A stretch of DNA of 64,000 nucleotides from Capsulimonadales bacterium (GTDB lineage: Bacteria; Armatimonadota; Armatimonadia; Armatimonadales; Armatimonadaceae), in assembly GCA_033762295.1 (NCBI GenBank), contig JANRLW010000009.1, forward strand, positions 1 through 64,000, written 5' to 3'. A model generated the notes under the pieces. It was not told where the DNA came from, ran no database searches, and saw nothing but the letters and a program-made list of their open reading frames with translations. The position numbers were made by a program, and so were the translations under genes. Position 1 is the first letter of the stretch. Each line of letters begins with the position of its first letter. Shown piece after piece: positions 22,560 to 41,645 of the stretch.

Positions 22560-22562
22560 AAA

Positions 22563-22592: not shown

Positions 22593-22616
22593 TCCGGGGG
22601 GTCGGGCGTACGGGGA

Positions 22617-23201
22617 TCAGGCCAGCCAGCGATTCCTCTGTTCGTCGGTCGATTCCGGGTCATCCCTCAGAGCGTCGGCGAACGTTTCCGGGTCGCTGAC
22701 GATCGGTTTCTGATCCGCGCGAAAATACTGGTTCGCCAGAGTCGGAGGCTGTCGCAGATAGGCCGAGATCTCCTCCGCCTGTCGTCCGATCGTCTCGGCA
22801 AGAGCCTTCAAAAACTTTTCCGGAATCGACTCCGGAGCGATCAGCCGCCGGTGCAGTTTGACGAACAGCGCGTACGGGATATCCAGAGCGGCGGCCACCG
22901 ATGCCGCGTCCAGGCCCCGCCCGGCTGCCGCCGCCATCAATCCGTTCACTCCGATCGCACCGGCTGTCGTCTTGCGTCGGGCTCGCACGACCTCCAGGCC
23001 GATCTCCCGCACGCGGGTGACCGCCACCGCATCCGGGGAGGTGTCCGCCCGGTCGGACCAGCGATCGGCGGCGAACCGTGCCAGATCGCGGGCCTGCGCC
23101 GGATACCGCCGCATCCACTCCGTCAGGTCCGGCCTCTCCGCCTGCGCGAACCGGACCAGCACCTCGTCCTCATCAAAAGGCAACTCGTTGACCGTACTCA
23201 T
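22617..23201 (-). CDS. Sigma-factor partner protein with central XRE-like HTH (putative anti-sigma/repressor)
   Basis: Starts 22 bp after the sigma gene. N-terminal helical domain (DLTEWMRRYP), central GLDAASVAAALDIP...KLHRR...FLKALAETIG resembling a Cro/C1 HTH, then YFRADQKP. Confidence 0.6.
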   Translation of the reverse strand: MSTVNELPFDEDEVLVRFAQAERPDLTEWMRRYPAQARDLARFAADRWSDRADTSPDAVAVTRVREIGLEVVRARRKTTAGAIGVNGLMAAAAGRGLDAASVAAALDIPYALFVKLHRRLIAPESIPEKFLKALAETIGRQAEEISAYLRQPPTLANQYFRADQKPIVSDPETFADALRDDPESTDEQRNRWLA

Positions 23202-23223
23202 CTTACTGTTCCATTCCCCCGCA

Positions 23224-24075
23224 CTAGGCCGTCAGCGCGCCGCGCTCCCAGGCCATCAATTTATCCTTGGCGCGGCGCAGGTAGTTGCGTACCGAACGCC
23301 CCGTGACTCCCAGCGCCCGTGCCACCGACGGGCGATTCGGGTCCTCGCTCTCCTCCGGCAACCCTTCCACGTAAATCAGGTACAGAGCGGTCCGCTCATT
23401 GTGATTCAACAGGCGCAACGCCTCCTCGTACTCGGCCAGCGCCTGCGGGGTCGCCCCCGTATCGGCGATCCGGCCGAAAAGCCGGTCGGAATCCCGCTCC
23501 TCCTCACCGTCCTCCGCCTGATCGCCGGGATTCATTTCCGTATCCGCCACCGCCTGACGCTTCTCGATCAGATTCCAGAGACGTCGATCCAGGCAAACCC
23601 AGAACCGCACTTCCCAGAACTCCGCCGACGGCGTTCGATCGAACAGCGCATCGCAGACCGCCGCGAAAAGGTCGCGTACACAATCATCGGCATCCTCGGA
23701 GGTCAACCGCCAGCGGGCCAGCTTTCGCTGAATATGCGCCGCCGTTCGCTCCACCAGCACCTCGATGATCTGCCAGGCCGTGTTTTCGTCCCCGTGCGCC
23801 GCAAATTCGCGTGCGAAATAGACGAGTGTCTCTTCCCGTAGTCGCGCGGAATCCGTCCATACCTGCCCCTTCATCAGCAGACGCTCGCGTCGCTGCCGGG
23901 CGGGCAGGCGGGAGATCTCCCGTACCTGAGCCTCGACCTCCCGTTCGCGCGTATAAACCTGTCCGTTGTCCCGTCGGGTTCGTGTGAGCGGTCGCACCGG
24001 CCAGGGGCCTCCCTCATCCGAATCTCTTTTTGCTCCGCTCTCGTCGGGAGAAGGGAACGCTTCGTTGTCTGTCAT
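23224..24075 (-). CDS. ECF-like sigma-70 family factor with N-terminal extension
   Basis: Region-2-like EDADDCVRDLF; region 4 LRLLNHNERTALYLIYVEG...VARALGVTGRSVRNYLRRAKDKL. Start placed at ATG 24075, downstream of TATAAT. Confidence 0.82.
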   Translation of the reverse strand: MTDNEAFPSPDESGAKRDSDEGGPWPVRPLTRTRRDNGQVYTREREVEAQVREISRLPARQRRERLLMKGQVWTDSARLREETLVYFAREFAAHGDENTAWQIIEVLVERTAAHIQRKLARWRLTSEDADDCVRDLFAAVCDALFDRTPSAEFWEVRFWVCLDRRLWNLIEKRQAVADTEMNPGDQAEDGEEERDSDRLFGRIADTGATPQALAEYEEALRLLNHNERTALYLIYVEGLPEESEDPNRPSVARALGVTGRSVRNYLRRAKDKLMAWERGALTA

Positions 24076-24278
24076 GGGCGGTACTGTCACGGTTTCCGGA
24101 AACCCGGAAACCGCCCTCGGAAAATTTACGACGCGCCCATTATAGCCCATAAAGCGGCGGCAAGGACAACGCACCCTGGCGGGCCGTTGCCTCGCTCCAT
24201 GATTGAAGCAAACACGGCGCAGAAGTGTCGGTATACTGTGTAGGACGTACTCGGTCCTTATCTGGCAAGGAGCCTCTC

Positions 24279-25700
24279 TTGAATCGGACAATTGCTGCAC
24301 ATTCGGTTCGCCGCCCTCTGTCGCGGCGCGATTTTCTCAGTGTCGCCACAATCGGCCTCGGCGGACTGCTTTCGGGTTGCGGAGGCGGCGGCGGTTCCGT
24401 GGTCCGGTCCACCCCGATCACCGGTGGTCCCGGTCGCGGCACAGGTGAGATCCCGCCGCAAAGCGGCTGGTCCGTCGTCAATACGGCCTACAAACAACTC
24501 ACCAAAAAGTGGACCTTCCTGGTCTACATGAATGCGGCGAACGACCTCGAAGAGTATTCCATCCTCAACATGAATCAGATGGAGGCGATCGGGTCCGGCG
24601 ATAACCTCAACCTCATCGTCCAGTACAAACGCTTTCCGAACCGATACGACAGTTCCAACGGCGACTGGCCGGGAACACGCCGTTACTATGTCGTCCGCGA
24701 TACCGATCGCGCTGCCGTGAACTCCTATCTCCTGTCCGAAAATCAAACGCTCGACATGGGCGACTGGCAGAGCCTGCAGCGATTCGTCCAGTGGGGGGTC
24801 GCTACCTACCCCGCCGAACGCTACTGCCTGGTTCTCTGGAACCACGGAGCGGGCTGGCGTTCGGCCCGAAACGGCGCGGGACCGATCACGCGCGGCGTCT
24901 CCTACGATGACATTACCGGAAATCACATAGATACCATCGAGTTCCCGGCCGCGATCGACATCGGCGGCGGACGCAAGTGGGATGTTCTGGCCTTCGACTC
25001 CTCGCTCATGCAGATGCTCGAGGTGGCCTACGAAATACGCGACAAGGCGACCTATATCGTCGGTTCGGAGGAGTCCCCGCCCGGTCCCGGCTACCCCTAT
25101 GATCGGTTCCTCGGCAACCTGGCCAACGATATCAACCGATCTCCGCGCGATTTCGCCATTGATATCGCACAGCAAACCATCGAGTCCTACACGCTGAACA
25201 GCAACATCACCCACTCGGTTCTGGATGTGTCCAAAGTCGCGGGGATCGTCCCGGCGGTCGACGAACTGGGTCGGCTGCTCTTCGAAAAGAAGGGAACGTA
25301 CGCGCAGCGTATCCGGGACGCCCGGGCAAAAGCGGAGAATTACGATTATCTCTATTACCGGGACATCATCGACTTCACCAACCAACTGACCGCGCCGATG
25401 ACGCCACAAGACCGACTGTCAAAAGAAGAATTTCCACTTACGACACCGCCTATCGCCGATGCTGCCATCGTGAACGCGGCGGCGCTCCTTCGTCAGACCG
25501 TTCAGGAGGCCGTGATCAAAAACGTCCGCGGCAATCAACACCCCCGATCCAACGGTCTCTCCATCTACCTGCCGACGCCGGGCGAGTACGATGCGATCGA
25601 TGTCTCCCAGGCCAACGGCTTCGGTCAGCGTTACCGCGCCCTCGCCTTCACCAAAGCCGCCCCCAGCTGGCATAACTTCATCGAGAACGGGCCGATCTAG
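24279..25700 (+). CDS. Clostripain (peptidase C11)-family Tat lipoprotein; catalytic Cys replaced by Ser
   Basis: SRRDFL + LSGC, WTFLVYMNAANDLE, LWNHGAGW, FDSSLM (canonical FDACLM), GSEE, NGLSIY; AAGGAG RBS before TTG. Confidence 0.85.
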   Translation: MNRTIAAHSVRRPLSRRDFLSVATIGLGGLLSGCGGGGGSVVRSTPITGGPGRGTGEIPPQSGWSVVNTAYKQLTKKWTFLVYMNAANDLEEYSILNMNQMEAIGSGDNLNLIVQYKRFPNRYDSSNGDWPGTRRYYVVRDTDRAAVNSYLLSENQTLDMGDWQSLQRFVQWGVATYPAERYCLVLWNHGAGWRSARNGAGPITRGVSYDDITGNHIDTIEFPAAIDIGGGRKWDVLAFDSSLMQMLEVAYEIRDKATYIVGSEESPPGPGYPYDRFLGNLANDINRSPRDFAIDIAQQTIESYTLNSNITHSVLDVSKVAGIVPAVDELGRLLFEKKGTYAQRIRDARAKAENYDYLYYRDIIDFTNQLTAPMTPQDRLSKEEFPLTTPPIADAAIVNAAALLRQTVQEAVIKNVRGNQHPRSNGLSIYLPTPGEYDAIDVSQANGFGQRYRALAFTKAAPSWHNFIENGPI

Positions 25701-28333
25701 CGGACGTTGACACTGGTCGCCACTCGCAACACGATCGTCCCGAGGACGATGCCGAGGGCGAGGGCGACCAGAGCGATGTGCCAGGAGAAGGGCCGCCGCA
25801 TCCGCGCCGCCCGACGTCCTCCGCGCCCCTCCGATGCGGGCGTCGGACGCCGAACCCCGGATGCCGGACGGGATACTCCGGCGACCGAACCGTCCGTCTC
25901 CCCCGGCAGAGCGAGCGCCATCGTCGTTCCCGAACCGGCGGCGGTGTTCCGGTAGAGGTCGGGCGACGAAAGGGCCGGCAATGCCGGATAGTACTCCTCG
26001 TGGTAGTGCACCGAGTCCACCTGATCCGACGGCACCCCGTTGAGCGTCACCCCGATGATATTCGCACGCGCCTTGTTCAAAAGGCGCATCACCTGATCCT
26101 CCGAGCCGCGCGGGACGTTGTTCGCTCGAACGACCAGCAGGGTCGCATCGACGAACGCCGCCATCACCGACGCGTCGGCAAACGCGATCGCCGAGGGCGT
26201 GTCGAAGAAGAGGAAGTCCGCCTTCCGCTTCAGCCGTTCGTGCAGTGTTCGCATCCTCTCATCCGCCAGCAGTTCCGACGGGTGGAGCGGCGGCGGTCCG
26301 GCAGGAAGGAGCAGAAGGTTCGGAATATCGGTGGGCAGCAGGGCATCCTCGAGACGGGCCTCCTCACGCAACACCGAGGTAAGGCCGATTTCATTCGAAA
26401 CACCGAAGACATCCTGCAGTTTCGGAAAGCGCAGGTCGGTATCGACCAGAATAACCGTCTTTCCGGCCTGCGCGAACGTAATGGCCAGATTTGAAACCGT
26501 GGTCGTCGCTCCCTGCCCCGGCTTTCCGGTCGCGACCATCAAAGACCGGAACGGATGCTCCTCCTGCGAAAAAAGAAGGTCGGTCCGTAGCAGTCGGTAC
26601 GCCTCAGAGACCGGAGCCAGCGGACTGAGATAAGCGACACGCGGGGCGCGATGCGGGTCGGGCAAATGCTCCGGGATAACGCCGACGACCGGCAGCTTTA
26701 ACGTTCGTTCGACGTCCTGCACCGTCCGAATCGAGTTATCGAGCGCATCCATACCGACTACCAGGACCACTCCGCAGAAAAGGGAAAGGACCAGGCCGAA
26801 TACCACGAGTGTCGGACGGTATCGGGCGATATCCCCGCCCACCGGCTCGGCATGGGCCTGGCTGACGATATTGATCGCGCCGGCCTTGCTCTCGTCGATC
26901 GCCTGGAGTTCGTATTTTCGCAGTTGCTCGGCCAGGGTCGTGACGTTTCGATCGGCGATGGTCGTTTCTCGCCGCAGGTCGCCCAGAGCGAACTGGGCCT
27001 CCGGTAGACTGCGCAGACGATCCGCCGCCGTTCCCGCCTGCTGATCGATCGCGTTCAGCCGCTGTTCGGCGCTGTCTCGCTGCACCTGGGCGTTCGCCAG
27101 TTGCAGTTCCAGCGCCTGCCGATTGGGATTCGCGGACGTCACTCCGTAGTCCTGTTTCCGGGCCTCCGCCAGCGCCTGCTCGGCGGCTTTCAGTTCGGAT
27201 TTCGCCAGGACGACCGAATCGTACTCCTCACCGTAATTCAGGTCGCGAAGCTTCTGCAGATTGATCCGGGCGTTGGCGACCCGCTGCCGTAAATCACGCA
27301 CGGCCGGGTTTTCCTCGGCGGGCAGGGCGTTCCGGACCGTGGCCGCCGTCGTTGCCAGTTGCCGCTCCAGCCGCGATACCGCCGCGGTCGCCTCGTTCAG
27401 GCTGCGCCGGGCCGCGTCCCGCTCGGTTTGCAGCTGGACGTACTGATTGATGACGTTTTCCTGGGCGGAGGTCAGGGCCACCCCCTGCGCCTTCCGATAG
27501 CGGCTCTCGGCCCGCTGCGCCTCCTCCAGCTGCCGCCGTGCCTCGCGAAGTTTCTCCTGCGTCAAAGCCAGACGGGCGTTCGCCGTTCCGGCGCTGCGGG
27601 AGATGTAAAAGTCGATAAACGCCACGCAGAGCATATTGACATAGAGGTTTGCCTCCGCCTCGCGCTCGAAACGCCCCGAAATCCGGACCTGATTCACGAT
27701 CTGACGGTTGTTTTCCGTGTCCAGCGGTCCGGCGACCACATCGAACGACATCTTCTCGCGGATAACGTCGGTGATGGCGGTGGGGCTGAGTTCGATGCCG
27801 CCTTCCTTGAAGCTTCCGAGGGAGTCCCGGGCTTCGACCAGCGAAGCGACGATCCGCTCGCGACTTTCCCGTTTCCGGCGCTCGCGAATGGCCGGCGCTT
27901 CCGCCGCCCGAATCTCCTTCAGAGCCACCGCCCGCTTGACCAGGGAATCCGCTTCGCTGTCCGTCTGGGCGAAATACCCGTTCTTGTCGAGGATACGTTG
28001 CACCGATTCGGTTCGCTCGGGCCGGGGCTGACGGAGAAGTTCCGCCGTGCGCAGATAGAGGTCGTTGCTGCTGCGCAGTTGCATTACCAGCTCGGAGATA
28101 CGGGCGGAGATATCCTCCTGAACCCGGGGGGGTGGCGCAACTCCGGTTTCGCCGACGTTGGCGACCGGAGTCTGTCCGGTGTCCAGCGGCGAGATGATCG
28201 CCACCGCCTCATACGAGCGCTGCTGTCCCTTGATGGTTGCGCCCACCAGAATCACGACCGCGGAAATCGCCATAATCCCCGCGATCAACCACCGTTTACC
28301 CCAGACCAGGCGGAAGATTCGCCAGAATTCCAT
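25697..28333 (-). CDS. Wzc/GumC-like polysaccharide co-polymerase with BY-kinase-like domain
   Basis: N-terminal TM, long periplasmic coiled coil, second TM, EAYRLLRT, degenerate Walker A, DTDLR, DTP. Confidence 0.88.
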   Translation of the reverse strand: MEFWRIFRLVWGKRWLIAGIMAISAVVILVGATIKGQQRSYEAVAIISPLDTGQTPVANVGETGVAPPPRVQEDISARISELVMQLRSSNDLYLRTAELLRQPRPERTESVQRILDKNGYFAQTDSEADSLVKRAVALKEIRAAEAPAIRERRKRESRERIVASLVEARDSLGSFKEGGIELSPTAITDVIREKMSFDVVAGPLDTENNRQIVNQVRISGRFEREAEANLYVNMLCVAFIDFYISRSAGTANARLALTQEKLREARRQLEEAQRAESRYRKAQGVALTSAQENVINQYVQLQTERDAARRSLNEATAAVSRLERQLATTAATVRNALPAEENPAVRDLRQRVANARINLQKLRDLNYGEEYDSVVLAKSELKAAEQALAEARKQDYGVTSANPNRQALELQLANAQVQRDSAEQRLNAIDQQAGTAADRLRSLPEAQFALGDLRRETTIADRNVTTLAEQLRKYELQAIDESKAGAINIVSQAHAEPVGGDIARYRPTLVVFGLVLSLFCGVVLVVGMDALDNSIRTVQDVERTLKLPVVGVIPEHLPDPHRAPRVAYLSPLAPVSEAYRLLRTDLLFSQEEHPFRSLMVATGKPGQGATTTVSNLAITFAQAGKTVILVDTDLRFPKLQDVFGVSNEIGLTSVLREEARLEDALLPTDIPNLLLLPAGPPPLHPSELLADERMRTLHERLKRKADFLFFDTPSAIAFADASVMAAFVDATLLVVRANNVPRGSEDQVMRLLNKARANIIGVTLNGVPSDQVDSVHYHEEYYPALPALSSPDLYRNTAAGSGTTMALALPGETDGSVAGVSRPASGVRRPTPASEGRGGRRAARMRRPFSWHIALVALALGIVLGTIVLRVATSVNVR

Positions 28334-28473
28334 ACCGCTGCTCGGCTCCCGACGACCGAAGCACTCTCCGGCTCATCGCTAGAATGCAGAATTTTCTACG
28401 TACCCTGCACCGGGAACGCCGTCTATTGTATCAGTGAATGGCCAAAGTTGGGGCTATCCGAGCAAAAACGGGG

Positions 28474-29772
28474 TCAGCGGGTCCCGCTCACCACGGTCAG
28501 GCGGGTCCGTTCCGCCGCCGCCCGCTGCGACGGAATCAGGGTCGGCAACGCGCTCGATTCGATCCGATCCGTGCCCGGCGCGGACATTACGACCGCATAC
28601 TCCATCACGTTCTGGAGTTCACGAATGTTGCCGGGCCAGTCATGCTGCTCCATCAGATGCAGCGCCTCCTCAGTGATGCCGCCGGGGAAGGTCCGCCCGT
28701 TTTCCTGAGACGACCGCGCCAGGAAGTGGAACGCCAGGGGGCGCACGTCCTCCTTACGGTTGCGTAGCGGGGGGAGCTTGACCGGGACGACGTGCAGCCG
28801 ATAGTAAAGATCGAGACGGAACGTTCCCTCCTGCACGGCCTGCCACAGATCACGGTTGGTGGCAGCGACAACGCGTACATCCACCTTGGTCGACTTGGTG
28901 CCACCGATCCGGCTTACCTCCCGTTCCTGAAGCGCGCGCAGCAATTTCACCTGCGTCACATGCGGGATATCACCGATCTCGTCCAGAAACAGCGTGCCGC
29001 CGTCGGCCAGTTCGAACCGGCCCGGCTTGGCGGCCAGCGCACCGGTGAACGCCGACTTTTCGTGACCGAACAGTTCCGACTCGAGCAGGGATTCCGGCAG
29101 TGCGGCGCAGGATACCGCGACAAATGCCCCTCGACTGCGCGGACTGGCCTCATGGATCAGACGCGCGGCAACCTCTTTTCCGGTCCCGGATTCGCCCAGC
29201 AGCAGAACGGTCGCGCGGGACGCGGCGGCGCGCAGCAATTGGTCACGCATCTCCAGGGTCGCGGGGGCCTCGCCCACCAATCCGAAGGTGGCGGCGGACG
29301 GCACCGGGATCTTGACCGCCGCCGCCCCCGGAACGGTGGGAGACGGCGCCGTCAGCGTCGGCCGCGCCCGCAACGCCCGTTCGACCGTGGCTCGAACCTG
29401 CTCCATCTCGAACGGCTTCGTCAGGTAGTCGAACGCCCCCAATCGCATCGCCTCTACCGCCGACCGGATCGTGCCATGCCCGGAAATCAGCAGAGCGCGC
29501 AGCCCCGGATGCTGCTTCCGAACCGACTCCAGTACCTCCAGACCGTTCATATCCGGCATCAAAAAGTCGGTCACCAGCAGATCCAGGCTCGTCTGCTGCT
29601 TCGCCTTTTTGATCGCGTCCCGACCGCTATCGGCAACGATCACGTTGTAACCATCCCGTAACAGGACCGCAGAAAGCACCCGTCGCAGATTCGGTTCGTC
29701 ATCGACGATCAGAATGGTCTGTCCGTTCGTCTGTCCGTTCGCAGGCTCCATGGTTCCGTTTGCGCTTTCCAT
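28474..29772 (-). CDS. NtrC-family response regulator (receiver + AAA+), no C-terminal HTH
   Basis: ILIVDDE, D..MP receiver; [38 protein letters not shown]. Confidence 0.92.
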
Positions 29773-29785
29773 TTGTCACTTCTTC

Positions 29786-31237: not shown

Positions 31238-31417
31238 GTATTGTTACTCCGCCCTTTTCTTTTCGGACGTTTTACCACCGGAATGCAGAGGTTTTTTACA
31301 GGAGAGAGGTAAGCTTTTTCTGAAATACTGGTATATTTACTGCGTTTTTGCGCCTTTCCGCAGCCCGAACACCGCTCCGTTTTCGCTTTTCGGACTTTCC
31401 GACGATAAGGAATCGCC

Positions 31418-32634: not shown

Positions 32635-32640
32635 CCGACC

Positions 32641-32728: not shown

Positions 32729-32739
32729 GGAGTCCCGAG

Positions 32740-33651
32740 TTGGAACTGCGAATCGAGAACCTGACCAAAACCTATCCCAACGGCGTTCGCGCGCTCAATG
32801 GAATCAACCTGATCATCCCGCGCGGTCTGTTCGGTCTGCTTGGCCCGAACGGAGCGGGGAAATCCTCGCTGATGCGAACGATCGCAACCCTTCAGGAGCC
32901 GGATACCGGCGGCATTTTCTTCAACGAAATCGACGTTCTTCGGGAAAAGGAGGCGTTGCGGGCGCGGCTCGGCTATCTGCCGCAGGAGTTCGGCTTCTAT
33001 CCGACCCTCTCCGCCGAAGCGACCCTGGACCACTTCGCCGCCCTGAAAGGCATGAACAACGCGCGCGAACGGCGCGAACGGGTGCAGGCGATGTTGCAAC
33101 AGGTCAACCTTTATGATGCCCGTAAGAAGAACGTCGGCGGCTACTCCGGGGGAATGCGTCAACGTCTCGGAATCGCCGTCGCCCTGATCGGCAACCCGGA
33201 ACTGATCATCGTCGACGAACCTACCGCCGGCCTCGACCCGACCGAACGCCACCGGTTCCTGAATCTGCTGTCCGAAATCGGTGAAAACGTCGTCGTCATC
33301 CTCTCGACGCACATCGTGGAGGATGTCCGTGAATTGTGCGAGCGGATGGCGATCATCGCCAGCGGTCAGGTGGTGGCCGAGGGCAACCCCGAAACCGTGA
33401 TCGAAGCGGTGCGCGGGCGTCTCTGGAAACGAACCTTCGACAAACGCGCCCTCGCCGATGCCCAGGCAAGATACCGGGTCGTCTCCACCCGACTCGTCGC
33501 CGGAAAACCCGTTCTGGCGATCTACAGCGAGCAATCGCCGGGCGACGGTTTCGAGCCGGTCGCCGCCGACCTGGAGGATGCTTACTTTTTCCATACCGCC
33601 CGGAACCTGGGTGGCGAACCGTCCGCAATCCCCGCAGGAGGTCCGTCGTGA
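32740..33651 (+). CDS. ABC transporter ATP-binding protein
   Basis: GPNGAGKS, YSGGMRQR, VDEPTAGLD. Confidence 0.95.
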   Translation: MELRIENLTKTYPNGVRALNGINLIIPRGLFGLLGPNGAGKSSLMRTIATLQEPDTGGIFFNEIDVLREKEALRARLGYLPQEFGFYPTLSAEATLDHFAALKGMNNARERRERVQAMLQQVNLYDARKKNVGGYSGGMRQRLGIAVALIGNPELIIVDEPTAGLDPTERHRFLNLLSEIGENVVVILSTHIVEDVRELCERMAIIASGQVVAEGNPETVIEAVRGRLWKRTFDKRALADAQARYRVVSTRLVAGKPVLAIYSEQSPGDGFEPVAADLEDAYFFHTARNLGGEPSAIPAGGPS

Positions 33652-36600
33652 AAGACGTTTTTCTCTTCGAACTCCGTTTCCGCACACGACAGATCTCGAC
33701 CTACCTTTTTTTCGGGATCTTCTTCCTCCTCGCCCTCCTGTTCATATCGACCGATATCGTGCAGCTCGGCGGCGGGGACGGCCGGGTCAAAGGAAACGCT
33801 CCCTTCGTGATCTCCGTGGCCGGAACCATCCTGATGGTCCTTGGCGGAACCATCTGCTCCGCTCTGCTCGGAACCGCCGTCTACCGCGATTTCGAAGCGA
33901 ACGCGCACGAACTGTTCTTCACCACCCGGCTTTCGAAGCGCGACTACCTGTTCGGGCGTTTCCTGGGCGCCTTCGTCGTGACCGTCCTGGTCTTTCTGTC
34001 GATTCCGCTCGGGTTCATCCTGGGGACCGTCGCGCCCTGGGCCGACAAATCCGACTTCGGACCCTTTCGCGCCGACGCCTACCTGTTCTTCCTCGGCGTC
34101 TATCTGCTGCCCAACTTGTTGCTGGTCGGCTCCTTCTGTTTTGTTTTCGGCGCGTTGACGCGCAGTCTCCTCGCCATTTACGTTCAGGGCATCCTGCTCT
34201 TCGTCGGCTGGGCCATGTCCCTGAGCCTCCTGAGCAACCTGGAAAGCCGGGAACTGGCCGCTTTCTTCGATCCTTTCGGCCTGAGCGCGACCTCCCTGCT
34301 GACCCGATACTGGACACTGGCGGAGAAAAACACCTCGCTTCTCACCCTCTCCGGTCCGCTGCTGGTCAATCGCGCCTTCTGGCTGGCCATTGCGGCGGTC
34401 GTTTTCGCGATCGGTTACCGTCTGTTCGCTTTTTCACGACATCCCCTGACCCTGGCGCGCCGCCGCAAGACAGCCATCGATAACGCCACGTTAACGGAGT
34501 CGGTTTTACCGTCCCAACTGCCGCCGGCGGCCACGGAACCCGTCTCGCCCCGGACCGTCTACCTCCGGTTGACCGGATTTTACTATCGTGAAATCCTGCG
34601 TGGCGTTCCCTTTCTCGCCATTACCTTCGCCGGTATGCTGCTGCTTTTCGTCAACGCTTCCCAGGCCGACCGCATTTTCGATACGCCGATCTATCCCGTG
34701 ACCCGCGTCATGATGGACAGCGTCGCCAACGGCTTTTCGCTGTTCTTCGTCATTCTGATCACCTTCTACACCGGGGAACTGGTCTGGCGGGAACGCGTGC
34801 TCCGTCTGGACCAGATTACCGACGCTCTGCCGACGTCGACCGCGGCCGGAATGCTCGCCAAAGTGTCGGCGATCGTCGCCATGCTGATGACGCTGAACGT
34901 CGGTCTGATCGCCGCCGGGATCGTGACCCAGGCCGCGAAGGGCTATTTCCACTTCGAACTGCCGCTGTACGCCACCTACCTGTTCGGCATCCTCCTTCCC
35001 GGCTGGATCGCCATGGTCTTTCTCGCCTTTTTCCTGCATTCCGTTCTCAACAACAAATTCCTGGGCCATACCGCCCTGATTCTGATCTCCCTCTCCGCGT
35101 CCGTTCTGCCCCTGCTCAAACTGGAACGCTACCTCTACCGGTTCGGCTCCGGACCGACCCCGGTGTACTCCGATATGAACGGCTTCGGACCGTTCCTGGC
35201 ACCGGTGTTCTGGTTTACCCTGTACTGGCTGGCGGTTTCCGTGTTGCTGCTCCTGGCCGCGCTTCGCCTCTGGGTCCGGGGCAAGGAGGAACGCCTGTTC
35301 TTCCGCTGGCAAAACGGGCGCATCGGTCGGGCCGGAAACGTTGTCGGCGTAACCGCCGCAGCGACCGTCGTCGGAAGCGCCGCCTTTATCACCTACAACA
35401 CCGACGTTCTCCACGAATACGTCCCGAAACAGGAGGGGCTTCGCCGCCAGGAAACCTATGAACGCTCCTACAAGGCCGCCTGGGAAAAGAAACCGATGCC
35501 GCACATCACGGCTGTCCGACTCGACGTCGACCTTCAGCCGGAACGACTCCGGTACGCCGTTCGGGGAACGTACCGCCTGAGAAATAAATCCGGGCGTCCG
35601 ATCCGCGAAGTCGCCCTGCAGACGGACCAGACCCTTACCGTGAAGGAACTGCGGTTCGCCGTTCCGGTCACCCCCGATATCGTCGATAACGCCACGGGCT
35701 TCCGAACCTTCCGCCTGGAACGTCCGCTGTCTCCCGGCGAGGAAACCACGCTCGATTTTTCGCTCGCCTATGACAAAACCGGCTTCCCGAACGACGGCAT
35801 TCAGACCGCCATCGCCGAAAACGGAACGTTCGTGACCATGCCGGTCCCTGCGATCGGGTACCAGCCCGGCGGCGAAATCACCGACGAACGGGAACGGGAA
35901 AAGCGAAAGTTGCCGAAGCGTCCCCGTATGCCGGCCCTGACCGATACCGCCGCCCGCAACCGTACCTATCTGGGCAGCGACGCCGACTGGATCGACTTCG
36001 AGGCCACCGTCCGGACCTCCCCCGACCAGACCGCCATCGCCCCCGGCTACCTGCAAAAGGAATGGACGGAAAACGGACGACGCTGTTTCCGCTACAAAAT
36101 GGATGCCCCCATCCGCAACTTCTACTCCTTCCTCTCGGCCAGGTACGCGGTCAAGCGCGACACCTGGACCGGACAAGACGGCAAAAAGGTTGCCCTCGAG
36201 ATCTGGTACCACCCCGCCCATGCCTATAATCTCGACCGGATGATGGCGGGAATGAAAGATGCGCTCACCTATTGCTCCGAGAACTTCGGCCCGTATCAGT
36301 TCCGACAACTTCGCATCCTGGAGTTCCCGGCATACGCTTCCTTCGCCCAGTCCTTCCCGAATACCGTCCCTTACTCCGAGGCCATCGGGTTCATCGCCCG
36401 CGTTCGAGAGGAGGAGGAGGACATCGACTACCCGTACTACGTCACGGCGCATGAAACCGCCCACCAGTGGTGGGCGCACCAGGTGCTGGGAGCGGACATG
36501 GAAGGGGCGACCCTGCTCTCCGAATCGCTGGCCGAGTACTCCGCACTGAAGATCCTGGAGAAAAAGTACGGCCCCGAACGGATTCGCCGGTTCCTGAGAC

Positions 36601-37250
36601 ACGATCTCGACCGTTACCTGCGCGGGCGCGGCGGCGAGCGGGAGGAGGAGAATCCCCTGGTCAAAGTGCAGAACCAGCAGTACATTCACTACCCGAAGGG
36701 CGCCCTCGCCTTCTACGCGCTGGCGGATCGGATCGCCGAAAAACGTCTGAACGCCGTCCTGGCGCGGTTCGTTCGGGACAAAGGGTTTCAGGAGCCTCCG
36801 TACACGACCTCCCTCGAACTGCTGGAATATCTCAAAACGGCGACGCCCGCCGGGGATCGTACCTTCCTCGGTGACCTGTTCGAGCGGATTACCATGTATG
36901 ACTGCCGGGCGACGGAGGCGTCCGCGAAACGGTTGCCTGACGGAAAATGGCGGGTGACGGTGACCGTCTCGGCAAGCAAGCGGTACGCCGACGGTTCGGG
37001 ACGAGAGACCGTCGCCCCCCTCGACGACCTCTTCGACATCGGTGTTTTCGCGGCCGCGCAGGGAAGGCAACGAGACAAGGACGCGGTCGGCAAGCCGTTG
37101 ATTCTGGAACGTCACCGGCTGACAACGGAACGGCGGACATTCACCTTCGAAACGGAGACCGAACCCGCGAAGGCCGGTATCGATCCTTACAACAAAATGA
37201 TCGACCGCATCCCTTCGGACAATGTCATCAAGGTGACGACCGCGCCCTGA
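33648..37250 (+). CDS. ABC-2 permease fused to an M1-family aminopeptidase
   Basis: Two multi-TM permease halves, then FAQSF, HETAHQWW...SESLAEY (HExxH-X18-E); GTG start overlaps the ATPase stop. Confidence 0.9.
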   Translation: MKDVFLFELRFRTRQISTYLFFGIFFLLALLFISTDIVQLGGGDGRVKGNAPFVISVAGTILMVLGGTICSALLGTAVYRDFEANAHELFFTTRLSKRDYLFGRFLGAFVVTVLVFLSIPLGFILGTVAPWADKSDFGPFRADAYLFFLGVYLLPNLLLVGSFCFVFGALTRSLLAIYVQGILLFVGWAMSLSLLSNLESRELAAFFDPFGLSATSLLTRYWTLAEKNTSLLTLSGPLLVNRAFWLAIAAVVFAIGYRLFAFSRHPLTLARRRKTAIDNATLTESVLPSQLPPAATEPVSPRTVYLRLTGFYYREILRGVPFLAITFAGMLLLFVNASQADRIFDTPIYPVTRVMMDSVANGFSLFFVILITFYTGELVWRERVLRLDQITDALPTSTAAGMLAKVSAIVAMLMTLNVGLIAAGIVTQAAKGYFHFELPLYATYLFGILLPGWIAMVFLAFFLHSVLNNKFLGHTALILISLSASVLPLLKLERYLYRFGSGPTPVYSDMNGFGPFLAPVFWFTLYWLAVSVLLLLAALRLWVRGKEERLFFRWQNGRIGRAGNVVGVTAAATVVGSAAFITYNTDVLHEYVPKQEGLRRQETYERSYKAAWEKKPMPHITAVRLDVDLQPERLRYAVRGTYRLRNKSGRPIREVALQTDQTLTVKELRFAVPVTPDIVDNATGFRTFRLERPLSPGEETTLDFSLAYDKTGFPNDGIQTAIAENGTFVTMPVPAIGYQPGGEITDEREREKRKLPKRPRMPALTDTAARNRTYLGSDADWIDFEATVRTSPDQTAIAPGYLQKEWTENGRRCFRYKMDAPIRNFYSFLSARYAVKRDTWTGQDGKKVALEIWYHPAHAYNLDRMMAGMKDALTYCSENFGPYQFRQLRILEFPAYASFAQSFPNTVPYSEAIGFIARVREEEEDIDYPYYVTAHETAHQWWAHQVLGADMEGATLLSESLAEYSALKILEKKYGPERIRRFLRHDLDRYLRGRGGEREEENPLVKVQNQQYIHYPKGALAFYALADRIAEKRLNAVLARFVRDKGFQEPPYTTSLELLEYLKTATPAGDRTFLGDLFERITMYDCRATEASAKRLPDGKWRVTVTVSASKRYADGSGRETVAPLDDLFDIGVFAAAQGRQRDKDAVGKPLILERHRLTTERRTFTFETETEPAKAGIDPYNKMIDRIPSDNVIKVTTAP

Positions 37251-37256
37251 GTCGCG

Positions 37257-38276
37257 TCAGGATAACAGACCGGCGTTCCGGAGGGTTCGGAGAAGCATCT
37301 CCTCCACCGGAGCGTCGGTGGTCGTCTGCAGATAGTCCATACCATGTCGCTGGGACAGTTCGGAGAGCGATGCGCAAAACCGATGGAATGCCTCGCGATA
37401 GTTGGCCAGTACCGCCGGGGTGATACTGACCTCCCGCGTCTCACCCGTTACCGCATCCACGAGCCGAAGATCCCCCACGACATTCGGTTCCGCCTCCTCC
37501 GGCGCGAGAATCTGCAGAAGAACGACCTCAAATCGACGGGACAGCAGGGCGCGAACGCCCCGTTCCCAGTTCGGATCGAAAAAGTCGGAGAGGACGATAC
37601 AGATGCCCGGTGAGGAATGACGGGCGGTATAGTTCCGTAGCGCGTGGACAAAATCCGTCCGTCCGCCCGGGGACAGGCTCTCCAGATACTCGAAAAGCCG
37701 TGGCGCAGATGCCTGCCCGCGCAGCGTCGGAACCCGGCTCCCGACCGTTTGCGCGAAACAGGCGACCGAAACACGATCGTAACGGATCAAACTGACATAG
37801 CCGATCGATGCCGCGATCTTACGGGCAAAGTCAAACTTGGTCATTCTCCCGGCGAACGTCTCCACCGGATACTCCATGCTCTGGGAGGCATCCAGCAACA
37901 GATGGATCGAAACGTCCTCCTGGGAAAACAGCCTTTGGAACAGCCGTTCCGGACGCAGAAACGCCTGCCGATCGACGTGCCTGGGGTCGTCCTCTATCCC
38001 GTACGGCCGGAAATCCGACACCTCGGGCGAAGCGCCGGGACGGAGGGGCCGCTTTTCCCCTTTTTTCGGGCCGGAGAAAGGGCGGCGCGCTGTCCCGGAC
38101 AGTCGCTCCAACGCCCGGAGAAACTCCGGTTCCAGAAACCTGCTTTGCACCGACATGGTAGGCACCGTCGCTTTCTTTACCGATCCGTTCTTCTTCGAAC
38201 GATCGGGCGTCTCCTGGCCGAAATCGGGAAGACCGTTTAATTGGAATTCACCAACCCCGACTTTTGTTTCAAGCAT
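37257..38276 (-). CDS. DUF58 (vWA-like) protein; alternative start at 38156
   Basis: DFRPY...DDPRHVD, LLDASQSM, VLSDF, LVDAVTGE. Confidence 0.85.
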   Translation of the reverse strand: MLETKVGVGEFQLNGLPDFGQETPDRSKKNGSVKKATVPTMSVQSRFLEPEFLRALERLSGTARRPFSGPKKGEKRPLRPGASPEVSDFRPYGIEDDPRHVDRQAFLRPERLFQRLFSQEDVSIHLLLDASQSMEYPVETFAGRMTKFDFARKIAASIGYVSLIRYDRVSVACFAQTVGSRVPTLRGQASAPRLFEYLESLSPGGRTDFVHALRNYTARHSSPGICIVLSDFFDPNWERGVRALLSRRFEVVLLQILAPEEAEPNVVGDLRLVDAVTGETREVSITPAVLANYREAFHRFCASLSELSQRHGMDYLQTTTDAPVEEMLLRTLRNAGLLS

Positions 38277-38354
38277 ACACTCCCGGACCGTCCGTATGCA
38301 AGCCCCCGGAGCGAATTCGAGCGGGCTGCCGACCGTATCCGGGTCGCGAACGGT

Positions 38355-41300
38355 CTATTCCGGGCAGATGAAATAGTACGGGCAGGTCGGACAATCGGCC
38401 GTATCGGCGGGCGTCGGCGGAAACACCTTCAGGCGGATGCCGCGTAAAGCGCGGTCATACTGCTCGAGGTGACGGAGGCGGGTTTTCGGGCGATCGGGGA
38501 CCGCCAGTGTCTCACCGGACTGCAAAAACCGCAGGCGAAGGTCCGGCTTACCGCCCGGTCGCGCTTTGAGCGCGGCCTCGTACAGCAGCGAGTAGCGAGG
38601 GTCCCGGAGAATATCGCTGTTTTCGGGATCGGTCGGCGGTCGCCGGAACGTGTGGCATTCCATCGTCGCCCCGTCGGACGACACGAAATCCGGCCGGACC
38701 TCGATCGCTCCGTTTTCCAGTTCCAGCGTCAGCGATGCCGGTAAATCCTTCCGCCGGAACGGCGCGACGCCGCTCGCGGCTGCGATATTTCGCTTTACCC
38801 GCTGTACGATCTCTCCCGCCGCCTGCCGGTACAGTTCCGCGTGCGGGTGCGTTTCGTCCAGTCCGTGCTCCACCCAGGCCGCCTCCAGAGCCACCGCCGG
38901 GTCCGGGCTTTCCAGCGCTTCCTCGAGCGTTCGCTTGAACGCATCGTAGGCGGTTCTTTCGCCGGTCGGGACGTTCGCCACCTCCTGATAGAAGTAACGG
39001 CGCGGGCAGCGCAGATACAACTCCGCCTCGGATGCCCGGATCGGTCCGGTCGGCGCGTCATCGGCATGGAGCGTTGACTCGAAATCGACGGTTTCGCCGA
39101 CCGGTTCCGCCGAAGCTTGCGCATAGTGCGCGGAGACCGACCAGACCTCGTTCCGAATTCCCGGTATCCCGTTCAGCGACTTCAGAAGCGGTGACGGCCA
39201 CTCCGGACGGCTGCCGTATTTCAACGCTCGTGACAGAACGATATGATCCCGCGCACGTGTCAGAGCGACGAAAAACAGGCGCGATTCCTCCTCCAGCGAG
39301 CTTGCGCCCGCTTTTTCATCGCCCGGCACCGGCGGCAACAGCGACGGCCCCGGACGGGAGGGAAACTTGTTCTGCGAAAGGTTGGGCACATAGACGATCG
39401 GGAACTCCAGTCCCTTCGCGCCATGCACGGTCAGGAAACGAACGACATCGGCGCCTTCGTCGGTTTCCGGGTCGGCGAATGTCGTCCCCAGTCGCGCCAT
39501 CCGCCGCAGATGCCGTAAAAAGGCGCGTCGTGGCTCATCGTCCTCCTCGAGCAACGCCACCGATCGATCCCGGAACGCTCGCGCTAGCGCAAGGAGGCGT
39601 GCCGCACCCGCCGTGTCCTCCAGCGTTCGAATCCAGCCCGGTCGCCCCCAGAAGAGTTCCAGATAAAAATCGAGCGCATCGCTGCGATACGGCAATCCCT
39701 CCGGAAGCTGCGGGTGGCGTCGCCGGGCCGGTCCCGCCGGTTCGGCCGCACGGGAGAGCAGCGCGACCAGATTTCGGACATCCCGACGCGCCAGAAACCC
39801 ACCCTCCTCCATGCCGCCGGCCGTCGGTATTCCGCGCGCGGTCAGCGCCGCCCGCAACTGACGCGCCTGGTTGCGCGTACGACAGAGCACCACCTGATCG
39901 CGGAACGCATACCCTTCCTGTTCGACGAAGTATCGCATCGTGTTGGCGATCCCGTCCGCCTGCGCCCGGTCATCGTCCGCAATCGCCAGCGTGACCGAGG
40001 CCGCCGGTTCCTCCTTACGCGATGCCTTCCAGGTCGCCGCCCCTTCCCCGCTGACCACACCGAACAGTGTCACCAGTTCCGCGCGCGAACGGTAGTTCAT
40101 CGCAAGATCGGTCCGCTCTCCGTTCGGGAAATCGTTCCGAAACTGAGCGACATTGGCGGGGGAGGCCCCACGGAACTGGTAGATGCTCTGCCGCACATCG
40201 CCGACGCACCAAAGACCGTCGCCGTCGCCGGCCAGCAGTTGAACCAGCCGCGCCCCGGCACGGTTGACATCCTGATACTCATCCACGAGAATATGATGCC
40301 ACTGAGCGCGTTCCGCCGTCCGCACCTCCTCGTTCTCCTCGAGCAGGCGCAGGGTCCGGCAGATCAGATCGCTGTAGTCCATCGCCCCCTTGTCCCGAAG
40401 AATCCGCTCGTAGAACGCATACACCCGTGCGACGTCCCGCAACCGATCATCCCCCGCCGCCTCCGCCCGTTCGGCGAACTCCTGGGGAGACATCATCTCC
40501 TCCTTGACACGTGCGATCATCCGCAGAATATCGGGGAGCGGGAACGCCAGGTCATGAAGGTACTGCAGGGCCGTCAGCCCCAGGTGGGCGGCACGACGCT
40601 CCAGAAGGGCGCAGGCATCCGCCATTTCCAGCAGAACGGGGGTCGCCGGAAGCCCGATCACCGTGCCATGCCGACGCAGCATCTCCAATCCGTAGGCGTG
40701 GAACGTACTGATGGAGGCGCGACGCGCGACCTCCGGTGCGACCAGAGCGATCCGCTCCCGCATCTCCTCCGCCGCCTTACGGGAAAAGGTCAACGCCAGC
40801 AGGTTCTCCGGGGGAACGCCGCACTCCTCGGTCAGAAAAAGCACGCGGGCGGTCAGCGTTCGGGTCTTCCCCGTACCCGGCCCCGCTCCGACCAGCAGAG
40901 GTCCCTTCTCCGCACGCGCGGCCTTCTCCTGACTGGGATCGAGGGTCGTCGAGAGAGGAGCCGGTGGTACGACAGCGGACTCGTCGGTGTCCGGCGCGAC
41001 CGCCGGACTCTCCGTCAGACTTTCCGTCAACTGGGCAAAAACGAGCGCCGACGGCAGCCCCAGACGGGCAGCCATTCGGTGAGCATCCGTCCCCGCATCG
41101 AACAGCCGACGCGCCGACGATGCGGGTAAAAGGAACTCGCGGGCAAACACATTCGCCTCGGTTTCACGACGTTGTCGCGGACCGTACCCGATGTTAAGCG
41201 TCGATTCCGGTTCGGCGAAGTCCTCCTCACAGCAATGGCAGAGGATGCCTTTCTCATGGAGGTAGAAATGGGCGAGTTCATGGGCGAGATAGACCCGTCG

Positions 41301-41546
41301 CTCCGCCGGCAGGGCGTCGGCACGAACCCAGATCGCCCGGGCCTCCGGGTCCAGAACGGCATGCGCCCCGGAAAGCAGGGCATCGCTCGGGCGACGCGGG
41401 TAACAGCGCAGGCCCGCCACCTTCAGGGCGGTATTGAGAAGCTGCTCCGCCGGCGCATCAGCCTCCTCTCCCCTCGTTCCCAGGAGAAGGGCTCGTCGTT
41501 CCCGCGCCGCCGCACGCGCCGCCTGCCATGTGGTCGCCGCTCCCAA
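38355..41546 (-). CDS. ImmA/IrrE metallopeptidase - UvrD/PcrA SF1 helicase - AddB/Cas4-like Fe-S domain fusion (~1063 aa)
   Basis: AHELAH + ETEANVFAREFLLP; helicase motifs GPGTGKT, TFSRKAA, DEYQD, GDVRQSIY, NYRS, TVHGAKGLEF, FVALTRA; RCPRRYFY...CPTCPYYFICP. TTG start inferred 6 nt after TATAAT. Confidence 0.9.
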   Translation of the reverse strand: MGAATTWQAARAAARERRALLLGTRGEEADAPAEQLLNTALKVAGLRCYPRRPSDALLSGAHAVLDPEARAIWVRADALPAERRVYLAHELAHFYLHEKGILCHCCEEDFAEPESTLNIGYGPRQRRETEANVFAREFLLPASSARRLFDAGTDAHRMAARLGLPSALVFAQLTESLTESPAVAPDTDESAVVPPAPLSTTLDPSQEKAARAEKGPLLVGAGPGTGKTRTLTARVLFLTEECGVPPENLLALTFSRKAAEEMRERIALVAPEVARRASISTFHAYGLEMLRRHGTVIGLPATPVLLEMADACALLERRAAHLGLTALQYLHDLAFPLPDILRMIARVKEEMMSPQEFAERAEAAGDDRLRDVARVYAFYERILRDKGAMDYSDLICRTLRLLEENEEVRTAERAQWHHILVDEYQDVNRAGARLVQLLAGDGDGLWCVGDVRQSIYQFRGASPANVAQFRNDFPNGERTDLAMNYRSRAELVTLFGVVSGEGAATWKASRKEEPAASVTLAIADDDRAQADGIANTMRYFVEQEGYAFRDQVVLCRTRNQARQLRAALTARGIPTAGGMEEGGFLARRDVRNLVALLSRAAEPAGPARRRHPQLPEGLPYRSDALDFYLELFWGRPGWIRTLEDTAGAARLLALARAFRDRSVALLEEDDEPRRAFLRHLRRMARLGTTFADPETDEGADVVRFLTVHGAKGLEFPIVYVPNLSQNKFPSRPGPSLLPPVPGDEKAGASSLEEESRLFFVALTRARDHIVLSRALKYGSRPEWPSPLLKSLNGIPGIRNEVWSVSAHYAQASAEPVGETVDFESTLHADDAPTGPIRASEAELYLRCPRRYFYQEVANVPTGERTAYDAFKRTLEEALESPDPAVALEAAWVEHGLDETHPHAELYRQAAGEIVQRVKRNIAAASGVAPFRRKDLPASLTLELENGAIEVRPDFVSSDGATMECHTFRRPPTDPENSDILRDPRYSLLYEAALKARPGGKPDLRLRFLQSGETLAVPDRPKTRLRHLEQYDRALRGIRLKVFPPTPADTADCPTCPYYFICPE

Positions 41547-41645
41547 TAGCCCATTATATCGCTCCGCCGCGCGGAAAACCGCTGTTTGACTCCGTCCCGT
41601 TGGCGGCGATCGAGGACCGCCTGTACAATAGCCGGGTTTTCCGCC

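Follow-up and report, generated by a model that had tools for sequence, protein, structure and literature searches.

The window analysed here, a stretch of 64,000 nucleotides (nt) covering positions 1 to 64,000 of contig JANRLW010000009.1 of the Capsulimonadales bacterium assembly GCA_033762295.1 (contig C9 of a 5.16-Mb genome in 132 contigs, called G000 below), encodes a divergent sigma-like protein, a partner protein with a helix-turn-helix (HTH) of the XRE type, and a fusion of an M78 peptidase to a UvrD-type helicase and a nuclease-like module with four conserved cysteines. These three proteins are one system. A bipartite promoter-like motif, TTTCCG(G/C)-N18-AGT, accompanies the cassette, and it is the promoter and its targets that are new here: the recurrence of the motif upstream of orthologous genes makes it appear that in f1, the Armatimonadota family to which the window belongs, recA, recD2 and a PARP-like gene are wired to the cassette, beside LexA. 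The model towards which we lean is that of a single cassette in which a helicase-linked protease would free the sigma factor, which in turn would drive a DNA-damage regulon alongside that of LexA. Its foundation is the linkage of the genes, the fold classes of their products, the motif and the conservation of each, from which we infer the reader of the motif, the cleavage of the partner, the binding of sigma to partner and the activating signal.

The linkage of the three genes is evident wherever the cassette was encountered. A pattern scan with the partner alignment over one genome per species gave ten loci, all in Armatimonadota, the phylum of every relative found for the window; in all ten the sigma, partner and fusion genes stand in that order on one strand, contiguous in nine and interrupted by a 4.6-kb insert in the other. 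When 401 Armatimonadota genomes were surveyed with three profiles (partner, sigma and M78 family, with a cut-off of E<=1e-10 for sigma), the partner was detected in 87, sigma in 77 and the M78 family in 98. The M78 family is present in all 87 genomes that have the partner, all three proteins are present in 74, and none of the 401 has partner or sigma without the M78 family. Thirteen genomes have partner and M78 family with no sigma match, and in nine of these a local search located a divergent sigma gene just upstream of the partner gene. There are 90 partner matches, with a sigma gene within 500 bp upstream on the same strand in 72, an M78 gene within 500 bp downstream in 66 and both in 51; many of the matches without both neighbours sit on short contigs. 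An earlier interpretation of this DNA, made from the letters alone and called here the sequence-only reading, had proposed that the three genes form one system and had offered adjacency and co-occurrence in other genomes as checks; the adjacency is found in the ten loci and around most of the 90 partner matches, and the co-occurrence throughout the survey. The cassette is confined to four Armatimonadota families (f1, f2, f8 and f27), where it is chromosomal and occupies 65-100% of the genomes, a pattern that looks like vertical inheritance. Three other loci (L017 in genome G118, L022 in G239 and L025 in G399) have partner-like HTH genes in tandem, two or three of them, upstream of the gene for the peptidase-helicase; no sigma gene is present in the fetched stretches of L017 and L025, and L022 has only a weak sigma-like match (E 1e-4). 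These tandem-HTH loci may be a sigma-less variant closer to the CapH/CapP systems discussed below.

The motif is best defined at the sigma gene itself. TTTCCGG-N18-AGT, 28 nt in all, precedes this gene in the window and in all ten related loci at fixed spacing, and the sequence of the 18-nt spacer is not conserved. The distance from AGT to ATG is exactly 7 nt in 10 of the 11 loci, the ATG of L006 being a few bases further away, and no Shine-Dalgarno sequence is seen; the -35/-10 geometry, with a transcript that starts at the A of ATG, implies a leaderless mRNA. A look-up of RNA sequencing runs over 22500-24400 of the window listed none. Divergent sigma orthologues of other families carry the motif as well (L015, L016, L018, L019 and L020), and it stands upstream of the sigma gene at 16 of the 19 loci with usable upstream sequence. 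A further sample from families f8 and f27 has it exactly in 12 of 20 cases, and three more show a 19-nt spacer by eye. The sigma gene is the only gene with the motif in all four families. Between the TATAAT box and the ATG no conserved palindrome or repeated half-site was found across the 11 loci. The motif emerged from following up the repeats of CGGAAA(A)CC type that the sequence-only reading had pointed out near both parts of the cassette, and these repeats do exist: the sigma gene has GGTTTCCGGGTTTCCGGAAACC in its upstream region, the fusion gene GGTTTTCCGC and CGGAAAACCCGG in its own. The TTTCCGC heptamer at the fusion gene is not counted as a copy of the motif because AGT is absent at the right distance.

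In G000, motif matches near gene starts include those of uvrB, mutS, recR, recD2, radA, ssb and a PARP-like gene, and there is a site upstream of recA; the copies at mutS and recR, those with an N17 spacer at recJ and recX, and those at Nudix, pentapeptide (C90:5680), PrkA and DNA methylase genes come from the scan of this one genome. Two near-identical DNA methylase genes (N6_N4_Mtase; C20:1809 and C79:4297) each have the motif about 68 nt upstream, and the pair may represent copies of one mobile element subject to that control. Since scans of a single genome are noisy, reliance was placed on comparing promoters across genomes, and six candidate targets (the PARP-like gene, recA, recD2, radA, uvrB and ssb) were compared in their orthologous upstream regions. 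Base composition gives a chance expectation of ~0.004-0.01 per upstream region for eight specified bases, and recA, recD2 and the PARP-like gene thus have the motif far more often than by chance, even allowing for the relatedness of the genomes. The PARP-like gene, which encodes WGR and PARP domains, has TTTCCG-N19-AGT by pattern at 9 of the 13 loci with upstream sequence, the spacers being unrelated; three more have GTTCCGC, ATTCCGG or CTTCCGC by eye at the same spacing, and the single f2 locus of the 13 is the only miss. In L004, L090 and G381 the motif-bearing PARP-like gene directly follows the fusion gene, and one of the three -35 variants belongs to such a paralogue. Upstream of recD2, nTTCCGG-N18-AGT is followed immediately by (T)ATAAT in 16 of 19 f1 orthologues, and the motif is upstream of none of the 20 orthologues in f2.

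The recA gene has the motif at 13 of 15 loci in f1, the misses being the second recA copy of G381 and a locus where no more than 177 nt upstream were available, and at 1 of 28 loci in f2, at -693. At 11 of the f1 loci (C96:279-923 of G000, which is L042, and ten related loci) the motif lies inside thpR, the gene for a LigT-type (2H) phosphoesterase that directly precedes recA. All 11 encode the peptide F-R-x6-S at this point with the codons TTC CGG ... AGT; the ThpR proteins of f2 and the paralogue in G381 have Gly where f1 has Ser, and AGT makes up 5.6% of the Ser codons of G000. The coding sequence here has the look of one on which a promoter was imposed. Nine f2 genomes (G121, G157, G210, G218, G270, G291, G296, G301 and G242) have two full-length recA genes, neither with the motif, and several of the second copies follow a thpR-like gene; the second recA copy of f2 was rejected as a target (0/9).

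At radA the motif occurs at -38 to -53 in 5 of 19 loci and at -189 in one more, and at least five other radA loci have, by eye, a CAAA(C/T)-N4-GTTTG palindrome next to TACAAT. In many f1 genomes a palindrome of the form CAAA(C/T)/GAAC-N4-GTTTG abuts TACAAT upstream of uvrB (L044-L059) and radA (L152-L161). It is probably the LexA box of the f1 clade. In some genomes the sigma-type motif stands in the place of this LexA-box-like palindrome at radA and uvrB; the region upstream of uvrB in G000 (C6:79560-79735, L026) has three TTTCCG copies past a TAGAAT box, one of them with the full N18-AGT, which replace the palindrome of the relatives.

The 283-amino-acid (aa) product of the sigma-like gene has Sigma70_r4_2 as its sole Pfam match, at 24.4 bits under a cut-off of 25.7, and no match to region 2. 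The top Foldseek matches of its AlphaFold2 model (predicted local distance difference test, pLDDT, 81.6) are all members of the sigma-70 family: sigmaE (1or7_A, E 9.4e-4), CnrH, SigW and SigE, SigH and SigL of Mycobacterium tuberculosis. Sigma factors of the extracytoplasmic function (ECF) type align with the model over ~200 columns with a probability of 1.00 and template modelling (TM) scores of 0.27-0.47. The sequence profile, compared with solved structures, aligns weakly (E 0.13-0.9) with CnrH and M. tuberculosis SigE over positions 93-261. A conserved N-terminal extension of ~75 residues precedes the sigma core, and the family alignment contains an invariant block, FWVCLDRRLWNLIEKRQA, which we take to resemble sigma region 2.3-2.4. 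On the strength of the predicted structure, the protein appears to be a divergent ECF-like sigma factor.

The partner has no Pfam match and belongs to a family of 1276 cluster representatives at E<=1e-3. Its AlphaFold2 model (pLDDT 77.7) comprises a helical N-terminal part of moderate confidence, a very confident XRE-type HTH, a less confident linker that contains Y-F-R, and two confident C-terminal helices. Structural alignment of the HTH with VIA-align gave matches to NGO0477 (Z 8.2), the N-terminal domain of CapH (7t5u, Z 7.8, root-mean-square deviation 1.7 over 61 residues), ImmR (7t8i, Z 7.3) and DdrO (6rnz, Z 6.9); the Foldseek E-values for the partner are weak (0.24-1.4), and a sequence search with its profile against solved structures returned nothing meaningful. 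CapH, ImmR and DdrO are, to our knowledge, the three known substrates of M78 peptidases. The model agrees with the sequence-only reading, which had described an XRE-like HTH followed by YFRA and had proposed cleavage between F and R: Y159-F160-R161 comes just after the HTH fold. The conservation of this FR motif, suggested at the time as a check, takes the form of an aromatic-basic pair, present in all 21 close relatives (mostly as SYR) and in most of 51 distant members and followed by an invariant Pro. The recognition helix of the HTH is rich in hydrophobic residues (PYALFVKLHRR), and the additional N-terminal domain is conserved in the family and absent from CapH and DdrO. The genes for sigma and partner often overlap, with gaps of -3 to -6 between the matches in several genomes, and the position downstream of sigma on the same strand, within 500 bp in 72 of the 90 partner matches, fits an anti-sigma factor.

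The fusion protein matches Peptidase_M78 (41 bits), UvrD-helicase (PF00580, 230 bits), UvrD_C (PF13361, 97 bits) and PDDEXK_1 (PF12705, 36 bits) in Pfam, and its orthologues at all ten related loci are 50-58% identical. The TTG at 41546 is taken as its start because the N-terminus, M..W..AR.AAR, aligns with those of six orthologues. The peptidase residues H89, E90, H93 and E130 are invariant in seven orthologues, the HExxH and the downstream Glu being intact, and the helicase core retains GAGPGTGKT and DEYQD, which are presumably the Walker A and B motifs. No GAF domain match follows the M78 domain in Pfam; the UvrD helicase and PDDEXK_1 modules are there instead. In the nuclease-like module the four Cys residues, one in ELYLRCP and three in CPxCPYFFxCP, are kept in all six orthologues compared. 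By assignment of positions by eye, the catalytic lysine of ExK is absent from all six (Glu is followed by C, M or R, then by H, M, L or R, then by T), and the upstream Asp of D...(D/E)xK is missing from one of the six. With the four Cys kept and the ExK lysine absent, this module looks like one that binds DNA rather than cutting it. The family of the fusion protein includes at least 188 proteins, labelled only as UvrD-helicase domain proteins, and by the names of their sources these extend to Acidobacteriota, Chloroflexota and Halomonadaceae.

Two plasmids of Proteobacteria carry the same cassette. On pLMG930.2 of Xanthomonas euvesicatoria, genes for a 265-aa sigma-like protein, a 207-aa protein and a 1095-aa M78-UvrD protein are followed by two small genes and by Mov34/JAB and ThiF genes, and this arrangement is what the sequence-only reading had mentioned as trios beside ThiF genes in other bacteria. 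The plasmid-borne sigma-like protein aligns with that of the window by hhalign (probability 87.9%, E 3e-6), and the S-Y-K-A-A-D-K-P of the Xanthomonas partner aligns with the candidate cleavage stretch. Both on pLMG930.2 and on pMl5 of Sinorhizobium medicae, TTTCCGA-N18-ACT/TGT precedes the sigma-like gene and occurs again after the helicase gene. The -35 heptamer and its spacing thus travel with the sigma family across phyla, and there is no stronger argument at present for the sigma factor as the reader of the motif. The plasmid cassettes resemble that of the window in gene order and in protein size (~265, ~207 and ~1100 aa, the last with M78 and UvrD domains), and S-Y-K/R-A-x-D-x-P is shared; they differ in that JAB and ThiF genes follow them, whereas the Armatimonadota copies are chromosomal and clade-wide, with the motif distributed among recA, recD2 and the PARP-like gene, and in the -10 triplet, which is AGT in Armatimonadota and ACT or TGT on the plasmids. 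Look-alikes of the cassette in Pseudomonadota, Chloroflexota and Acidobacteriota count as no more than leads.

As we picture the mechanism, the fusion protein would be made constitutively from a housekeeping-type promoter and would load on abnormal DNA by way of its UvrD motor and inactive-looking Fe-S nuclease module, the helicase presumably being the sensor. Loading would switch on the N-terminal M78 peptidase, which, by analogy with the action of CapP on CapH, would cut the partner at F160|R161 in the linker behind the HTH. The cut would free or activate the ECF-like sigma factor, and the freed sigma would read TTTCCG(G/C)-N18-AGT promoters: that of its own operon, as positive feedback through a leaderless mRNA, and in f1 those of recA (within thpR), recD2 and the PARP-like gene, with radA and uvrB in some genomes. 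In the genome of the window the displaced peptidase-helicase would act in trans. The role favoured for the partner is that of a putative anti-sigma factor that holds sigma inactive, on account of the gene overlap, the extra N-terminal domain, the hydrophobic recognition helix and the lack of a conserved operator-like repeat. A more far-reaching account, to which we give slightly less than an even chance, is that the four Armatimonadota families have a second, LexA-independent damage response in which a helicase-borne protease unlocks a private sigma factor by cutting an HTH-type anti-sigma factor; the plasmid form would guard ubiquitin-like anti-phage operons and would have been domesticated here as a chromosomal master regulator, with recA, recD2 and the PARP-like gene under it, its promoter written into thpR by a change from Gly to Ser.

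The sequence-only reading had tied the two parts of the cassette together by a shared 10-mer, TATAATGGGC, which is indeed exact at 24135-24144 and 41549-41558 on the minus strand, each time just upstream of a gene start. The 10-mer consists of a sigma-A-type TATAAT and GGGC, and it is as a specific signal that it fails. With one mismatch or less there are three matches in the window against 0.96 expected, a number reached by 8 of 100 shuffles and not significant alone. In the relatives the TATAAT upstream of the sigma gene, found in 8 of the 11 loci at a variable distance, is followed by GACT, CAGA, ACTG, AAGG, TTTT or AAAG, and fusion genes that are relocated elsewhere have TACAATAG, TATAATAG or TAAAATAG, with TACAAT, TATAAT or TAAAAT boxes near the start and without TTTCCG-N18-AGT. 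The flanking bases being unconserved and the boxes at relocated fusion genes being different, both copies are therefore ordinary sigma-A-type -10 boxes, and the 10-mer as a common control site, already contradicted by the comparison, is hardly credible. What stands of the overall interpretation in the sequence-only reading is the single three-gene system, the conserved aromatic-basic site, the CapH site and the ThiF context, and what falls is the 10-mer as a signal. Several genes begin 6-9 nt past a TATAAT-type box with no Shine-Dalgarno sequence (recD2 at C69:39326 and mutS at C48:1886 of G000, and 41544-41558 of the window), and leaderless mRNAs seem to be common in G000.

It is possible to accept the cassette as real and to see in the partner a DNA-binding repressor of the CapH/DdrO type that sits at the operon promoter, so that its cleavage would de-repress the sigma gene and sigma would act once made. 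The characterised M78 substrates with this HTH (CapH, ImmR and DdrO) are DNA-binding repressors and the best structural matches of the partner, a roadblock downstream of the TATAAT that lies upstream of the motif in most loci is conceivable, and TTTCCG copies are repeated near the sigma gene of the window and near uvrB in G000. Yet only the asymmetric bipartite motif is kept across the 11 loci, with no conserved palindrome or half-site, and the partner has a conserved N-terminal domain foreign to CapH and DdrO, a hydrophobic recognition helix and a gene that overlaps with that of sigma as in sigma/anti-sigma pairs, all of which makes a repressor unlikely. An activator of the LuxR/GerE type, which would bind TTTCCG beside housekeeping promoters and leave the rest of the model unchanged, is improbable as an identity for the 283-aa protein. 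Pfam gives only the HTH of region-4 type, below cut-off, the Xanthomonas homologue is annotated as LuxR family (GerE, 25.1 bits), and the AGT at recD2 runs directly into (T)ATAAT; the sigma and PARP-like genes, on the other hand, have a fixed spacer of 18 nt and lack a TATAAT at -10, and an activator would not be expected from a whole model that matches ECF sigma factors over ~200 columns, a profile that aligns CnrH and M. tuberculosis SigE, if weakly, or an invariant FWVCLDRRLWNLIEKRQA of the kind just described.

A further reading, in which the cassette would be mainly a mobile-element or anti-phage switch and the motif sites at repair genes would be read by another f1-wide factor, is decidedly improbable. 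It accords with the Mov34/JAB and ThiF genes behind the Xanthomonas cassette, with the inseparability of motif and cassette within f1, where every genome searched has the cassette, and with f2, where the cassette is found without sites at recA and recD2. It is at odds with the presence of the motif at the sigma gene, alone among genes, in all four families, with the motif-bearing PARP-like gene directly behind the fusion gene in L004, L090 and G381, with the return of the -35 heptamer and spacing beside the cassette on two plasmids of another phylum, and with the Armatimonadota cassette itself, which is chromosomal in four families at high occupancy and looks vertical. Several results weigh against the model of a helicase-linked protease that frees a repair sigma factor. 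Related genomes are not independent counts, and the absence of recA and recD2 sites from f2 and the lack of any contrast between motif and cassette within f1 bear on this model too. A position-weight scan of G000 gives one strong site, the promoter of sigma itself (35 bits; next best 23), and copies of the motif at the 5' ends of genes are not enriched relative to 60 permuted heptamers (11/75 versus a decoy mean of 2.1/17.7). As conserved targets, uvrB (1 of 30 loci, in G000 only) and ssb (4 of 24 loci, which serves as a negative control) were rejected. The N-terminal region of the partner (pLDDT 44-77) matched no anti-sigma fold, the match list being filled by the HTH domain. The genome also keeps two LexA genes; replacement of LexA by the cassette was rejected, and the cassette would add to LexA.

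The coordinates of the cassette and its elements are collected in the table; the open reading frames (ORFs) of the sigma, partner and peptidase-helicase genes lie where the sequence-only reading had placed them.

Table. Positions of the cassette genes, domains and promoter-like elements in the 64,000-nt window
Feature	Position	Strand	Basis or remark
Partner gene	22617..23201	-	ORF, 194 aa; start 22 nt past the end of the sigma-like gene
XRE-type HTH of partner, residues 85-153	22743..22949	-	Fold matches of the AlphaFold2 model
Y159-F160-R161, putative F|R cleavage site in the linker after the HTH	22719..22727	-	Conservation
Sigma-like gene	23224..24075	-	ORF, 283 aa counted from ATG
-10-like element AGT	24083..24085	-	18 nt past TTTCCGG, 7 nt before the ATG at 24075
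-35-like element TTTCCGG	24104..24110	-	Window and 10/10 related loci at fixed spacing; further families
Sigma-A-type -10 box TATAAT upstream of sigma gene	24139..24144	-	Inside the 10-mer
Fusion gene, M78 peptidase/UvrD helicase/Cys4 PD-(D/E)XK-like	38355..41546	-	1063 aa, TTG start; Pfam and orthologue alignment
C-terminal PD-(D/E)XK-like module, four conserved Cys	38361..39035	-	PF12705, 36 bits
UvrD-type superfamily-1 helicase core	39228..40943	-	PF00580, PF13361; GAGPGTGKT and VDEYQD legible
M78 (IrrE/ImmA-type) peptidase domain, HELAH and downstream E..EAN.FAREFLLP	41046..41354	-	PF06114, 45.8 bits
Sigma-A-type -10 box TATAAT upstream of fusion gene	41553..41558	-	Ends 6 nt before TTG; leaderless arrangement
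TTTCCGC upstream of fusion gene, -35-like heptamer	41571..41577	-	GGG at the AGT position

The fusion gene is upstream of the sigma/partner pair on the same strand, 14.3 kb separating the start of the sigma gene from the stop of the fusion gene, and it is flanked by ABC transporter and DUF58 genes with no adjacent XRE gene, which bears out the earlier remark that it lies about 14 kb away without an adjacent XRE substrate. Between the pair and the fusion gene are genes for a histidine kinase, a sigma-54 regulator, a ParA-like protein and a C11 peptidase, and since these are the usual upstream flank of the sigma gene in the relatives, it was the fusion gene that moved. Gene order thus identifies the 14-kb split as a rearrangement. 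Splits on one contig also occur in G234 (4.6 kb), G026 (15.6 kb), G145 (828 kb) and G036 (3.6 Mb); their presence in several genomes argues that the cassette works in trans and means that the split of the window is not unique. The C11 (clostripain-family) peptidase gene (24225-25700 of the window, plus strand), whose product has a hint of a Tat-like signal, is divergent upstream of the sigma gene, as it is in six of eight annotated loci (L003, L004, L006, L007, L008 and L011), and a ParA-like gene (~900 aa) often lies beyond it; this neighbourhood may be plain synteny or may have a link to the cassette. The genes right after the fusion gene vary (L006:13935-15781, L008:15793-16290, L011:11385-11699 and L003:14190-14708) and encode either a WGR-PARP protein together with a helix-hairpin-helix protein, or a protein with pentapeptide repeats, or one with a PycTM domain.

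Several known systems share features with the cassette. In Deinococcus, the M78 peptidase IrrE (PprI), which carries a small GAF-like domain, cuts the XRE repressor DdrO after DNA damage, which leads to a LexA-independent induction of recA and other repair genes. The cassette is like IrrE/DdrO in its M78 peptidase and XRE fold; DdrO is a direct repressor on a palindromic site, with no sigma factor or helicase fusion, whereas the site here is an asymmetric -35/-10-like pair. ECF sigma factors of the sigmaE-RseA type are released from their anti-sigma factors by regulated proteolysis through membrane-bound site-1 and site-2 proteases. Like these pairs, the sigma factor and partner of the cassette are co-transcribed from often overlapping genes and have a self-regulating promoter, and the partner is putatively destroyed by a signal-activated protease; unlike them, the partner is a cytoplasmic XRE-HTH protein without a recognised anti-sigma domain, the protease is an M78 peptidase on a DNA motor, and Pfam misses region 2 of the sigma factor. 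The genes concerned are of the same kind as those of the LexA/SOS system, and at radA and uvrB there is either the sigma motif or TACAAT with the LexA-box-like palindrome; unlike the cassette, LexA is a repressor that cleaves itself.

The closest parallel is with CapH and CapP, an HTH repressor and an M78 peptidase whose genes stand upstream of operons of the cyclic-oligonucleotide-based anti-phage signalling system (CBASS), of Bub and of other types (Lau et al. 2022, bioRxiv 10.1101/2022.04.27.489752; PMC13373217). Lau et al. state that CapP has a C-terminal GAF-like sensor domain, that single-stranded DNA activates it and that it cuts CapH between Phe82 and Arg83, the Phe-Arg site that the sequence-only reading had given correctly, and that 24 CBASS systems encode capH, capP and a sigma factor of the sigma-70 family (Lau et al. 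2022, bioRxiv 10.1101/2022.04.27.489752). As far as this account of CapH/CapP goes, the cassette shares with it an M78 HExxH peptidase, an XRE-HTH partner (Z 7.8 to CapH), an aromatic-Arg site past the HTH and a logic of DNA damage. It differs in that the GAF-like domain gives way to a full UvrD helicase with a Cys4 nuclease-like module, in that the partner has the extra N-terminal domain, in that a dedicated sigma factor, which has a promoter motif of its own, is always present, and in that the output predicted from the f1 promoters would be repair genes and not an adjacent immune operon. The system has an input like those of CapH/CapP and IrrE/DdrO and an output like that of ECF sigma/anti-sigma pairs, and is a plain member of neither. 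In the openly available literature covered, bioRxiv supplements aside (Table S1 of Lau et al., for example), no description of it was found, and the nearest approach is one sentence in Lau et al. 2022 on capH and capP beside a sigma factor.

The possible significance of the cassette lies in how it would connect a signal to gene expression. Known bacterial damage circuits use cleavable or ligand-binding repressors, such as LexA, DdrO with IrrE, and the WYL regulators PafBC and DriD; if the model is true, a circuit whose sensor is a protease joined to a DNA motor, and in which the damage signal frees a sigma factor, would add another design. As a switch of general use, the cassette would couple abnormal DNA to a sigma factor; it would represent a new class of sigma/anti-sigma control in the cytoplasm, and would give a function to the unnamed partner family, with its 1276 cluster representatives, and to the widespread peptidase-helicase fusion. 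Clean cases of regulatory rewiring would be the promoter inside thpR and, at radA and uvrB, the exchange of palindrome and sigma motif, and a regulatory module that is found beside ubiquitin-like immune operons would be linked, in these Armatimonadota, to ordinary DNA repair.

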